DNA of 64,000 nucleotides from NCBI GenBank assembly GCA_963812945.1, contig CAWEXD010000008.1, positions 376,586 through 440,585 on the forward strand, read 5' to 3'. Numbering within the stretch: the first letter of the stretch is position 1; every line of letters starts with the position of its first letter. This DNA is from an uncultured Candidatus Rokubacteria bacterium. Lineage in GTDB: Bacteria > Methylomirabilota > Methylomirabilia > Rokubacteriales > DASRDR01. Of this stretch, positions 1-11,901 are shown piece after piece. The notes beneath the pieces are model-generated. The model did no database searches. It had not been told where the DNA came from and saw only the letters and a program-made list of their open reading frames with translations. The translations under genes were made by a program, and so were the position numbers.

Positions 1-552
1 CGCGTCTCGCACCCAGGGATACGGCGCCAGGTGGTGGCGCCAGGCCGCCTCGTCCGCCGCATCGGAGTCGTGGCCGCGCGGCGGGCCCATCTGGTTCAGG
101 AGCAGCACGACGGGCTTCCCGGTCCAGCCGAGAATCTGCATCTCGGCCTCGACGTAGCCCGCGGACGCCGGGGCTTCGGCGGCGTTGACCAGATAGAGGA
201 CCACGTCGCTCTCGTCCTTGACGTTGCGGACCGCCTGCTGGCTGCTGTAGAAGGGGCGATCGGTCAGGCGGTCCCACACCTGCGTGAGCAGCCACCCGAT
301 CGGGTTGTTGCTCATGCGAAGACGCTTGCCGAGACGCGCGCTGTCGCCGAATCCCGGCGTGTCCCAGAGACGCAGTACGTCGCCGCCGGGGGTGTCGATC
401 AGCACGTGGCCCTCGGCGGTCTCGGTGACGTGCGCCTCGTCGCGCACCTCGCCGACGTCCCGCCGCAGGAGGGTCCGTGCGAGCGTCGTCTTGCCGACAT
501 TGGTATGGGACACGAGGCTCAGATTCACGATGGCCGGAGGCCCCGCGGACAT
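1..552 (-). CDS. GTPase, DUF3482-type (MMR_HSR1-like G domain); 3' end runs off the window
   Basis: Reverse translation from ATG at 552 gives MSAGPPAIVNLSLVSHTNVGKTTLARTLLRRDVGEV...LWDTPGFGDS. G1 (NVGKTT) and G3 (DTPG) are visible. The start lies 5 nt after the stop of the upstream DUF2868 gene. It is absent from the ORF track because there is no stop codon inside the window. Confidence 0.75.
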   Translation of the reverse strand, partial: MSAGPPAIVNLSLVSHTNVGKTTLARTLLRRDVGEVRDEAHVTETAEGHVLIDTPGGDVLRLWDTPGFGDSARLGKRLRMSNNPIGWLLTQVWDRLTDRPFYSSQQAVRNVKDESDVVLYLVNAAEAPASAGYVEAEMQILGWTGKPVVLLLNQMGPPRGHDSDAADEAAWRHHLAPYPWVRDA

Positions 553-557
553 GGCGA

Positions 558-9100: not shown

Positions 9101-11901
9101 TCCGGCGCCACCGGAAACGCGCGTCGGAAGGCCTCGACTCCCTCGGGTGTGAGCCCGTGGTGGGCCACGAAGTGGAGCAGTGTCCCGTCGAACCGGAAGA
9201 GGTGACAGAACTGGGCCTCGCAGAGCTGGGCCGCGCTCCGGGCGATCGTGTCGAAGACCGGCTGGATGTCGGTCGGCGAGCTCGAGATGACCCGGAGGAT
9301 CTCGCTCGTCGCGGTCTGCTGCTCCAGGGTCTCGGTGAGGTCGCGGTTGCGGACCTCCAGCTCCTTGAACAGGCGCACGTTCTCGATGGCGATGACGGCC
9401 TGGTCGGCAAAGGTCTTGAGCAGCTCGAGCTGCCGGTCGGGGAAGGGTCCGGCCTCCACGCGCGCCACGGCGATGCTCCCGATGGGGACGCCGTCGCGCA
9501 CCATCGGAACGCCCACGACGCTTTTGAAGTTCGCCGTCCTTGCCACCGCGCCGTGCCCGTAGTCCGGGTCCGCATCGACGTCCGGGACTTGCTCGACGAC
9601 GCCGCTCAGGACTGACCGAGCTGCTGCACTGGCCCTGCCTGGCGCCATGGGATAGGCACGCCGCACGGCCTCCGCCCCTTCCGGACTGAGCCCGTGGTGG
9701 GCGACGAAGTGGAGCAGTGTGCCGTCGAATCGGTAGAGCTGACAGAATTGCGCGTCACAGAGCCGCTTGGCGCTCTGGGCGATCGTGTCGAACACGGGCT
9801 GGACGTCGGTCGGCGAGCTGGAGATGACACGCAGGATCTCCCCCGTGGCCGTCTGCTGCTCCAGGGTCTCGGTGAGGTCGCGGTTGCGCGTCTCCAGCTC
9901 CTGAAAGAGGCGGACGTTCTCGATGGCGATGACGGCCTGGTCGGCGAACGTCTTCACGAGCTCGATCTGCTTGTCGGTGAAGGGCCGGACCTCGGTCCGG
10001 CGGATCATGATGACGCCGATCGCAACACCTTCCCGGAGCAGCGGCACGGCGAGGATCGTCCGGTAACCGAGCTCCTTCATCGCCCCGGAGTCAGGGAACT
10101 CGGCCAGGAACGCTTCGGCCAGGTCCTCTACGTGGACCGGTCCCCGATCGTGGGCCGCGCGCCCCACTACGGACCGGCGGCCGATGGTGAGCTGCTGACG
10201 CGCGACCGGCCGCCCTCCCCACGACGCGACGCGGTGGAGCGTCGCACCGTCCCGTTGCCAGATGTGGCCGTCGTCGGCGGCGCACAGGCGCGCCGCGTTC
10301 GCCGCGACGGTCTCTAGCACCGGCTGGAGATCCGTGGGCGACGTGCTGATGATCCGCAGGATCTCGCTCGTCGCCGTCTGCTGCTCCAGGCTCTCCGTGA
10401 GGTCCCGATTGCGGGTCTCCAGCTCGGTAAAGAGCCGGACGTTCTCGATGGCGATCGCCGCCTGGTCGGCAAAGACGCGGAGGAGCCCCAGCTGCTTGTC
10501 GGAGAAGGGATCCACGACCATCCGGAACAGGGCGATCACGCCGAGGGGCGTGCCTTCGCGGAGGAGGGGCGTCGCCACCATGGTGTGATGCCCCAGGCGA
10601 CGCTGGAGGTCGCGCCCCTCGGGGAACTCGTCCTCGGGCTCCGTGGCCAGGTCGTGGACGTGCACCGTGCGCTTCTCCACCACGGCTCGGCCGGTCACGG
10701 AGCCCCGCGTGACCGGAATCTCGAGCGCGGCCAGGCCCCCCATCTGGCGCGCGATGACGTCCGGGAACGGGCCCACGCCGGCCGCGCCGCGGAGCGTGTG
10801 GCCATCGAGCCGGAGGATCGCCACATCCGTGGCCCCGCAGAACCGCGCGGCGGCGCGGACAACCGTGTCGAGGACGGGCTGGATGTCGGTTGGAGAGCCG
10901 GAGATCGCCCGGAGGATGTCGGCGGTGGCCGTCTGCTGTTCGAGCGCCTCGGTGATCTCGCGGTTCCGCCCCTCCAGCTCCGCGAAGAGCCGACGCTGCT
11001 CGTCGGAGAGCTGGTGAAGCTCGCGGCTCATCCGGTTCATCCGACCGGCCAGGACACCGAACTCGTCGCGGTTCGGGACGTCGATGGTCGCGCTGAAGTC
11101 GCCTTTCGCGACCCGGGCGAGAAAGGCCTCGGCCTGGCGGACGGGGAGGATGAACGACCAGGACGTGACGAATCCCAGGGCGAGTGCGAGGACGATCGAG
11201 GCGGCCGCGAAGCCACCCGTGAGAAGGAGGGCGCGATGGTTGGCCGCCTCGACATTCTGCCTGAGTCGGACCATTCCGCTCTCTTCGTTCCGGACGACCC
11301 GGGTGACGAGGGTGGCGATCTCCCGGTGAAGGGGAGCGCTCTCCCCGAGGTGAAGCGCCATCGCCTCGTCGTGCTTGCCTTCCCGGATGAGGCTCCCAAT
11401 GCGCGCCACCATGGTCAGGACCTGGCCCTGGACCGCGCGAATCCGCTGGATCACCTCGCGCTCGTCGGGCGAGGCAGCCTCCTCCAGGCGGGCGAGCGTC
11501 TCGTCGAACCGGTTCTTCTCGCGAAGGATATTCTCGATGGTGGCGTCGTCGCGGAGGAGCAGCGCATTCCGCGTCACGTTCATCTGCAGGCCGAGGGTCT
11601 GCTCGATCTGGCGAGACGCGTCGACCCGCTCGCGGGCCTGGTCAAGGAGCCGGCTCTGACGGGACACGCTCGTGATCGTCCGGAGGCTCAGCGCCCCCAT
11701 CGCGATGAGGAGCAGGGCGATGAGGAGGAACGCGCCGAGGAGCTTCGCGTGCACCGACGCGCGGATGCCGGCGACACGCCGGACCAAGAACCCGAGGGGC
11801 GAGCGGGGCAGGAGGAGGCGCGGGATCCGTTCGCTCGGGCCCGGCGTCGTGTCGGGGGCCGGCGCGGCGGCCTGGACGGGTTCTCTCTCGTGTGCGTGCA
11901 T
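3172..11901 (-). CDS. Giant hybrid sensor histidine kinase: TM-sensor-TM-HAMP, 10 GAF, PAS, HisKA, HATPase, 2 receivers, Hpt
   Basis: 2,909-aa ORF. HAMP: [39 protein letters not shown]. Nine GAF units each begin with LEQQTAT.EILR.ISSSPTD.QPVFD and end with [23 protein letters not shown]; a tenth GAF is divergent. PAS: [14 protein letters not shown]-box: [15 protein letters not shown]-box: [10 protein letters not shown]. Receivers: [10 protein letters not shown]...[11 protein letters not shown] and [10 protein letters not shown]...[11 protein letters not shown]. Hpt: [12 protein letters not shown]. Confidence 0.92.
5600..10944 (-). repeat. Intragenic tandem coding repeat (10 GAF units, about 537 bp each)
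   Basis: The Phe codon of the FADQ linker motif recurs on the plus strand at 6184, 6721, 7258, 7795, 8332, 8872, 9409, 9946 and 10471. Spacings are 537, 537, 537, 537, 540, 537, 537 and 525 bp. A conserved ~100-nt block (ggcgatgacggcctggtcggcgaaggtcttcag...) recurs at each junction. Confidence 0.9.

Follow-up and report, generated by a model that had tools for sequence, protein, structure and literature searches.

Hybrid sensor histidine kinases of the ArcB/BarA/TorS kind combine HisKA, HATPase, receiver (REC) and Hpt domains in one protein and work with a separate response regulator, and regulators that carry a fused nucleotide cyclase are a known class of response-regulator output. The DUF2868 membrane proteins and the DUF3482 GTPases are catalogued, uncharacterized families, and their genes occur as a pair, in a constant order and with a gap of ≤5 nt. 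Here we describe a cluster in which genes of all these kinds follow one another on the minus strand, at the start of a 64,000-nt stretch of ~70% G+C DNA from a Candidatus Rokubacteria bacterium (this whole stretch is referred to as the window). We think it fairly probable, at roughly 0.6, that two self-sufficient units of two genes each, a kinase-cyclase unit and the DUF2868-GTPase pair, have been joined in the cluster by a lineage-specific fusion into one probable transcription unit that gives them co-expression. The signaling half is of known kinds, the pair belongs to the catalogued families, and their union is a local variant.

The window kinase has the same residues and boxes as ArcB, BarA and TorS, but it adds 10 GAF domains, has two receivers and reaches 2909 amino acids (aa), and the output of its regulator is a cyclase rather than a DNA-binding domain. 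The TorS/TorT system also has an adjacent gene for a periplasmic binding protein, as the window kinase has a DctP-type gene; this is an analogy only, and the DctP neighbor is not conserved in relatives. The cyclase shares the Guanylate_cyc fold, the metal-binding Asp residues and the Asn of class III cyclases, from which it differs at Gln212/Thr286 and His297. The pair has the gene order that it has elsewhere, whereas a kinase and a cyclase precede it only here and in a small clade. Its GTPase shares the G-domain fold of the Era, EngB, Toc34, GIMAP and septin GTPases but differs from them in having N-Q-x-G as its G4 motif and in its unmatched DUF3482 region. The two-gene layout of the pair resembles that of the Escherichia coli YcjX/YcjF operon, in which overlapping genes encode a P-loop NTPase and a DUF697 inner-membrane protein, and FeoB, in which a G domain is coupled to a membrane protein, may serve as an architectural analogy.

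Gene order, junctions and transcription signals

The first gene of the cluster (3172..11901, minus strand) encodes, according to its open reading frame (ORF) and Pfam domains, a hybrid sensor histidine kinase of 2909 aa. Its stop codon lies within a 17-nt overlap (3172-3188) with the start of the second gene (2142..3188, minus strand), which is translationally coupled to the kinase gene and specifies a 348-aa response regulator whose output domain is a class III nucleotidyl cyclase (ORF and Pfam). After a 27-nt gap (2115-2141) comes the gene for a DUF2868 membrane protein (558..2114, minus strand; 518 aa, ORF and Pfam), and 5 nt further on (553-557) begins the gene for an MMR_HSR1/DUF3482 GTPase (1..552, minus strand), of which 183 aa with the N-terminal G domain are visible before it runs off the window edge. 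The four minus-strand genes, their overlap and their gaps are exactly as an initial annotation of the window had reported them, and the spacing is operon-like, as it had also stated.

A sigma-70-like promoter candidate, TTGACC-N18-TAGCAT (11929..11958, minus strand; a consensus match only), lies ~28 nt 5' of the kinase ATG. In a consensus scan of positions 1..13000 it was the sole promoter-like site on the minus strand (read as 11958..11929), in agreement with the earlier statement that a promoter candidate occurs only upstream of the kinase. Two promoter-like sites were found in this region, one per strand, compared with 0.3 expected from shuffled sequences, and both lie within the 195-bp intergenic region between the kinase and DctP genes, where the plus-strand site serves the divergent DctP gene. 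No terminator-like site was found by scanning the minus strand of 1..13000. The 27-nt junction between the cyclase and DUF2868 genes has a Shine-Dalgarno-like GGAGG, lacks a U tract and does not fold better than its shuffled versions (z = -0.86). Because this seam leaves no room for a separate promoter, the pair is most likely expressed by read-through. The same consensus scan found no promoter-like site in the related loci L007 and L087 either, implying that its sensitivity is low in such genomes and that its silence inside the cluster is weak evidence.

We propose, from the 27-nt spacing, that the pair has probably lost its own promoter on coming to lie behind the kinase-cyclase unit, and that read-through from the kinase promoter would bring about co-expression. 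Co-transcription, like the phosphotransfer route and the cyclase activity considered below, is something that we infer from sequence.

A 16-nt direct repeat (11962-11993; 1.9 copies, 93% match) lies immediately next to the kinase promoter candidate, at its -35 hexamer, and reaches into the beginning of the candidate promoter of the divergent DctP gene (11992-12020). Its copies, read on the minus strand, are AGAGGATGTCGCCC and AGAGGATGTCCGCCC, and it may be a binding site for a regulator. No Rfam family reached its gathering score in the window.

The two units together and apart

We sampled the four-gene order in 12 contigs, the window included, in which DUF2868 identity to the window protein is at least 67%. 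The four-gene block is present in 7 of these 12 loci, namely, the window, L001 (90% DUF2868 identity to the window), P0009 (76%), L007 (70%), P0022 (69%), P0018 (69%) and P0023 (67%), and absent from L087/P0008 (76%), L005 (74%), L006 (72%), P0015 (71%) and P0016 (70%). It is also absent from all examined loci with a DUF2868 identity of ≤63%. The nearest labeled genomes of the lineage carrying the block are Rokubacteria metagenome-assembled genomes (MAGs). The initial annotation had made its case depend on whether the juxtaposition is conserved or unique to this genome, and the answer falls between the two: the block is not unique, recurring in six other contigs at 67 to 90% identity, but it is confined to a narrow lineage.

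L001, the closest relative, shares all four genes and their arrangement (junctions of -17, 18 and 5 nt), and convergent purM, purF and purL genes start 40 nt past its GTPase gene. The GTPase gene is thus the last of the unit in L001, which, for this closest relative, refutes the earlier suggestion that further operon members may lie past the window edge. The flanks of the block differ between contigs, implying that the block has been passed on whole despite rearrangements. All eight called copies show a kinase/cyclase overlap of 17 nt, and the DUF2868/GTPase junction in copies of the block is ≤5 nt or overlapping; the gap between the cyclase and DUF2868 genes ranges from 18 to 125 nt among relatives. 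The four-gene cluster is therefore two tight pairs joined at a loose seam.

L087 has the order purH-purN-GSDH, DUF2868-GTPase, purM-purF, so that its upstream flank is that of the window and its downstream flank that of L001. Despite this synteny it is without the ~11-kb segment that contains the DctP, kinase and cyclase genes, and we found no remnant or deletion scar of the kinase and cyclase genes in L087. Its homology with the window resumes only 7 nt before the DUF2868 ATG, implying that any ancestral promoter of the pair has been replaced. In a rough neighbor-joining tree, the block-positive loci fell into two groups, with the group of L087, L005 and L006 nested between them. One gain and one loss would be the simplest history of the block compatible with these relationships.

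The looseness of the seam and the position at which L087 homology begins, with the replacement of the ancestral promoter that it implies, are what might be expected if the two units were mere neighbors, with the 3' end of the cyclase gene harboring a separate promoter for the pair and neither transcript nor function shared, and the autonomy of the pair nearly everywhere else points the same way. However, the 27-nt gap holds only the Shine-Dalgarno-like GGAGG, no minus-strand promoter-like site lies within 1..11900, and no terminator-like structure follows the cyclase stop codon, and we regard mere adjacency as decidedly unlikely.

Each of the two units also occurs without the other. The kinase-cyclase unit is autonomous and stands alone in close relatives. 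The 90%-identity cluster to which the window cyclase belongs comprises 136 sequences, and the cyclase P0544, which is 88% identical to that of the window (the cyclase of the four-gene locus L007 is 83.5% identical), is found on five contigs in a kinase-cyclase operon with a 2183-aa kinase and a 17-nt overlap, followed by a convergent gene for a flavin adenine dinucleotide-dependent oxidoreductase, with DUF2868 absent. For another, P0545, the preceding gene encodes a kinase of ≥2796 aa, and PALP, nitrilase and major facilitator superfamily genes come next. One of the five P0544 contigs, L088, stems from the sample that also yielded L087, which would be compatible with the kinase-cyclase unit having been relocated rather than lost in the L087 lineage.

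The DUF2868 and GTPase genes, for their part, are a robust, autonomous and widespread two-gene module. At least 421 species-level genomes encode a DUF2868 relative (identified with two short peptide patterns, one genome per species), and we examined the best 80, which are mostly MAGs labeled as Burkholderiales, Usitatibacter, Steroidobacteraceae and other Gammaproteobacteria, with one Sphingomonas; of the three closest, two are labeled Rokubacteria and one Actinomycetota. In 74 of 77 informative loci (tblastn), DUF2868 is followed within 300 nt by a same-strand GTPase gene, the remaining three having it 2.8 kb away (one locus) or not at all (two loci). This adjacency upholds the earlier description of a conserved pair with no known function, as does the literature that we searched for the DUF2868 and DUF3482 families, none of which assigns them a function or a structure. 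In the Beta- and Gammaproteobacteria, including Pseudomonas aeruginosa, signaling neighbors of the pair are normally absent, and clustering of ORFs from 85 loci revealed no family-wide third gene beside the pair, only synteny within sublineages; this all-against-all clustering of stop-to-stop ORFs was confounded by the alternative-frame ORFs of high-GC DNA. A metagenome scan with the DUF2868 protein yielded two loci only, and no plasmid-borne copies of DUF2868 were found.

In one Burkholderiales lineage (L002 to L004 and L012), the pair is split by three genes over ~2.8 kb, namely, a gene without a Pfam match, a cupin gene and a gene for an AI-2E-family transporter.

It is against this distribution that the functional proposal of the initial annotation has to be weighed. 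It had cast the pair as the effector of the relay and cyclase, which would amount to true signaling coupling: the relay would activate the cyclase, and a cyclic nucleoside monophosphate (cNMP) or the phosphorylated regulator would control the DUF2868/DUF3482 GTPase machine as the output. The retention of the four-gene order in seven contigs at 67 to 90% DUF2868 identity despite varied flanks, the tight spacing and the failure of our scans to find an internal promoter or terminator all speak for coupling, as does the presence, in two other loci, of an unrelated kinase close to the pair. In L072 (13220-15415) and L075 (13155-15818), from MAGs labeled Gammaproteobacteria and Steroidobacteraceae, a cytoplasmic 3xPAS-HisKA-HATPase kinase is encoded 81 to 160 nt downstream of the GTPase gene on the same strand, an association that is independent of the window cluster and has another gene order. 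However, a Pfam search with E values up to 10 detected neither a cNMP-binding nor a receiver domain in DUF2868 or the GTPase. Furthermore, a receiver-cyclase gene lies directly upstream of DUF2868 in only 1 (L007) of the 69 genome loci with enough upstream sequence and is absent in the other 68, and the association is missing in 5 of the 12 close relatives, including the syntenic L087. Near-identical kinase-cyclase units occur without the pair, and elsewhere in the window a cyclase with a recognizable effector adjoins a cNMP-binding protein. By our own rough estimate, kinases beside the pair in the 80 loci are about as frequent as kinase abundance would lead one to expect. Gene neighborhoods thus weaken the claim that the pair is the effector, which we found to be unsupported, and we consider signaling coupling unlikely.

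We take a similarly skeptical view of the possibility that this lineage has turned the multi-GAF phosphorelay, with its atypical Gln/Thr/His cyclase, into a dedicated regulator of the pair, acting via a nucleotide product or by direct docking of the phosphorylated regulator; this seems quite unlikely. If true, a GTPase pair encoded in at least 421 species-level genomes, among them Pseudomonas, would for the first time have a regulatory handle. A conserved regulatory neighbor would be a useful clue to the pair, and this locus is a weak lead only; the kinase/cyclase neighbor is a local, separable addition and not a general property of the DUF2868/DUF3482 family.

Several points weigh against the interpretation of the cluster as a fusion for co-expression. 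The sample of close relatives, 12 contigs from a few metagenomes, is small, and the neighbor-joining tree is a rough one. The block has stayed intact at 67 to 90% identity while its flanks changed, which selection for a functional link, rather than inertia, could explain. The cyclase coding sequence might contain a promoter. The promoter scan is poorly sensitive in these genomes, and a cNMP-dependent or phosphorylation-dependent interaction with the pair could use a fold beyond the recognition of Pfam.

Phosphorelay and cyclase

The kinase has the Pfam domains HAMP, GAF (10 copies), PAS, HisKA, HATPase_c, Response_reg (two copies) and Hpt. Two transmembrane (TM) helices (aa 54-72 and 224-242) bracket a region of ~150 aa that is probably an extracytoplasmic sensor. 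The array of 10 GAF domains (5617..10887, minus strand; aa 339-2095, Pfam) has a period of ~179 aa, and its coiled-coil linkers are near-identical. Tandem Repeats Finder, with a longest period of 500 nt, found no tandem DNA repeats in the array, because the repeat unit of ~537 nt exceeds this maximum. Complete orthologues of the kinase are 2183, 2186 and 2735 aa long, and truncated copies exceed 2796 and 3076 aa, implying that the GAF copy number varies between close relatives. The kinase of L007, a MAG locus, is in two reading frames, through either an assembly error or a frameshift.

The phosphorelay core of the kinase (3214..5199, minus strand) consists of HisKA and HATPase_c (aa 2235-2462), two receivers (aa ~2487-2743) and Hpt (aa 2816-2896). 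HisKA (PF00512) scored 78.4 bits and has the H-box SHEIRTP with H2245; HATPase_c (PF02518) scored 106.8 bits and has the N, G1 and G2 boxes, including GGTGLGL; the receivers have the phospho-acceptors D2537 and D2679; and Hpt (PF01627) scored 50.9 bits and has H2849. With D60 of the regulator, all the residues needed for the His-Asp-His-Asp relay named by the initial annotation are present. We propose that the kinase, with its membrane and multi-GAF sensor, would autophosphorylate on H2245 and that the phosphate would pass first to the Asp of an internal receiver, then to H2849 of Hpt and finally to D60 of the regulator, whose phosphorylation would switch the class III cyclase domain. Phosphotransfer from this kinase to D60 is suggested by the conservation of the 17-nt overlap in all eight called copies.

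The second gene product combines Response_reg, with the phospho-acceptor D60, and Guanylate_cyc (PF00211; 79.0 bits against a cutoff of 21.9), the cyclase domain spanning aa 165-341. Its best match among solved structures was the cyclase chain of PDB entry 2w01 (E = 3.3e-29), and the domain also matched the bacteriophytochrome-cyclase fusion 6fht (E = 8.8e-31). The protein in 2w01 is Cya2, a guanylyl cyclase of Synechocystis; its PDB record carries the label adenylate cyclase. From an alignment with 2w01 and 115 representative homologues, we read the six class III catalytic positions as D172, Q212, D216, T286, N293 and H297. The metal-binding Asp pair (D172 and D216) is intact and the transition-state Asn is canonical (N293), whereas the transition-state Arg is replaced by H297, and the substrate pair is Q212/T286 rather than the canonical Lys with Asp/Thr (for ATP) or Glu with Cys/Gly/Ser (for GTP). 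The Gln/Thr signature with a retained Arg recurs in related receiver-cyclases (10 among the best representatives). The His-for-Arg change is restricted to the closest representatives and to L001, L007 and P0544, in which the Gln change is also kept. This noncanonical Gln/Thr/His active site makes the nucleotide specificity, product and rate uncertain, and the label nucleotide cyclase is given by homology only. To our knowledge, no characterized class III cyclase has the Arg-to-His change. Rv0386 of Mycobacterium tuberculosis has a Gln/Asn pair and mixed ATP/GTP use. The cyclase would be expected to form a homodimer, as other class III enzymes do.

The loss of the transition-state Arg and of the substrate-specifying Lys/Glu, with both changes kept in L001, L007 and P0544, raises the possibility that the domain is a pseudo-cyclase without catalytic activity and that its role is that of a protein-protein adaptor under the control of phosphorylation, docking, for instance, on the GTPase pair. 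However, neither the metal-binding Asp residues nor the Asn has been lost, and Gln/Thr accompanied by Arg is recurrent among the related receiver-cyclases (again, 10 among the best representatives). Furthermore, the His variant is also found in kinase-cyclase units without the GTPase pair, so that it is not an adaptation to the pair. We consider an adaptor role very improbable.

A search for known defense systems with PADLOC gave no match for DUF2868 and, overall, only generic cyclase and weak G-domain matches. The Pycsar anti-phage system was considered and rejected, since the PycC matches (≤70 bits) did not rise above the generic Pfam cyclase match and the pair is without a cNMP-binding domain.

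The DUF2868/DUF3482 pair and other features of the window

The DUF2868 protein matched PF11067 with 42.5 bits (gathering score, 26.8) over aa 178-323 only. A search for homologues returned 819 proteins, the best 120 of which are full-length and 50 to 90% identical to the query. Its layout consists of an N-terminal helical region and four hydrophobic TM segments (~aa 96-114, 125-143, 211-234 and 289-319), with a conserved loop motif, DYxAGWESTF, after the third, and a C-terminal alpha/beta domain (~aa 350-518) that has invariant TPE..HG and D-E-x-P-Y motifs and no P-loop. Comparison of an AlphaFold2 model of the protein (predicted local distance difference test score [pLDDT], 84) with the PDB by Foldseek returned nothing significant, the C-terminal domain giving weak matches to GTPase and flavodoxin folds (E = 0.03 to 0.16, TM score <0.5), and a sequence-profile search of the PDB with DUF2868 found no match.

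The visible GTPase fragment matched MMR_HSR1 (PF01926) with 40.6 bits against 21.9. Because the best 120 of 728 homologues of this 183-aa fragment were short or partial proteins, we then used a full-length orthologue as the query. This orthologue, P0241 in L001, is a 499-aa MMR_HSR1+DUF3482 protein that is 97% identical to the window protein over the fragment; its DUF3482 domain (PF11981) scored 55.1 bits against 29.2, and in the window the gene is cut off before the region that would encode this domain. The G1 (SHTNVGKT) and G3 (DTPG) motifs are canonical. In place of NKxD, the G4 motif is N153-Q154-x-G156 (NQMG; window 85-96, minus strand), which is invariant in 68 sequences, and without the guanine-specifying Asp, guanine specificity should not be assumed. 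In a structural model of the orthologue (pLDDT, 74), the G domain matched Era, EngB, Toc34, GIMAP2, septins and MnmE (Foldseek, E ~1e-4), and its PDB profile matches were Der, Era and septin. Behind the G domain, the model places a helical stalk, a glycine-zipper hairpin (aa 323-383; low confidence) and a helical C terminus. No structural or sequence match was found for the C-terminal DUF3482 region. Structural models and conserved motifs are thus now available for the pair.

A membrane-proximal motif of DUF2868, DYxAGWESTFL (aa 237-247; window 1374-1406, minus strand), looks like GxVGWSxxFL in the GTPase (P0241 aa 389-411). Profile-profile comparison of the two proteins was not significant (E = 0.23 over 23 columns), and the partners do not appear to be detectably homologous to each other. 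The notion that the C-terminal domain of DUF2868 is a degenerate copy of the partner G domain meets the same E value of 0.23, the 23 columns lying elsewhere in the protein.

Three further identities were examined and set aside. Homology of the pair with YcjX/YcjF received hhalign probabilities of 0.9%, 0.25% and 0.09%. A bacterial dynamin-like identity (LeoABC/BDLP) for the GTPase was rejected because the weak LeoA and LeoBC matches (E = 5.5e-6 and 2.3e-4) were confined to the G domain; its best Foldseek matches were Era, EngB, Toc34 and septin, not dynamins. As for the 663-aa proteins that had seemed candidates for a DUF2868-GTPase fusion, the part that makes them longer is at the C terminus and bears no relation to DUF2868.

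Within the proposed fusion of two units, the second would comprise a four-TM DUF2868 protein, its alpha/beta domain in the cytoplasm, together with a small GTPase resembling Era, Toc34 and septins that is anchored by a glycine-zipper hairpin. On the basis of this anatomy and by analogy with membrane GTPases of the Toc34/GIMAP type and with FeoB, we suggest, with low confidence, that the pair might act as a switch driven by nucleotides, with the anchored G protein serving to gate or remodel its four-TM partner.

The DctP-type solute-binding protein of the tripartite ATP-independent periplasmic transporter (TRAP) kind is encoded outside the operon (12097..13236, plus strand), divergently from the kinase. 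It has a twin-arginine-like (Tat-like) signal and is an orphan, with no DctQ or DctM gene after it. Its gene is within the ~11-kb segment missing in L087 and is not beside the kinase in other loci. The DctP protein might feed the periplasmic sensor of the kinase.

Four ORFs of the window, 23763-25223 (minus), 33970-35460 (minus), 45289-46029 (plus) and 20571-21395 (plus), had no Pfam match at E ≤1e-5, and all four have a gene-like codon bias (G+C content at third codon positions, 0.80 to 0.91).

At the far end of the window, an MscS-like mechanosensitive channel that bears a cNMP-binding domain at its C terminus (55650-57200, plus strand) is followed after 20 nt by an sCache_3_2-HAMP-class III cyclase (57221-58639, plus strand), and an HD_5 (HD-GYP-type) protein is encoded nearby (61080-61937, minus strand). 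By its domains, this arrangement looks like a cyclase with a cNMP-gated effector, and, together with the HD_5 protein, it shows that the genome is rich in cNMP signaling.

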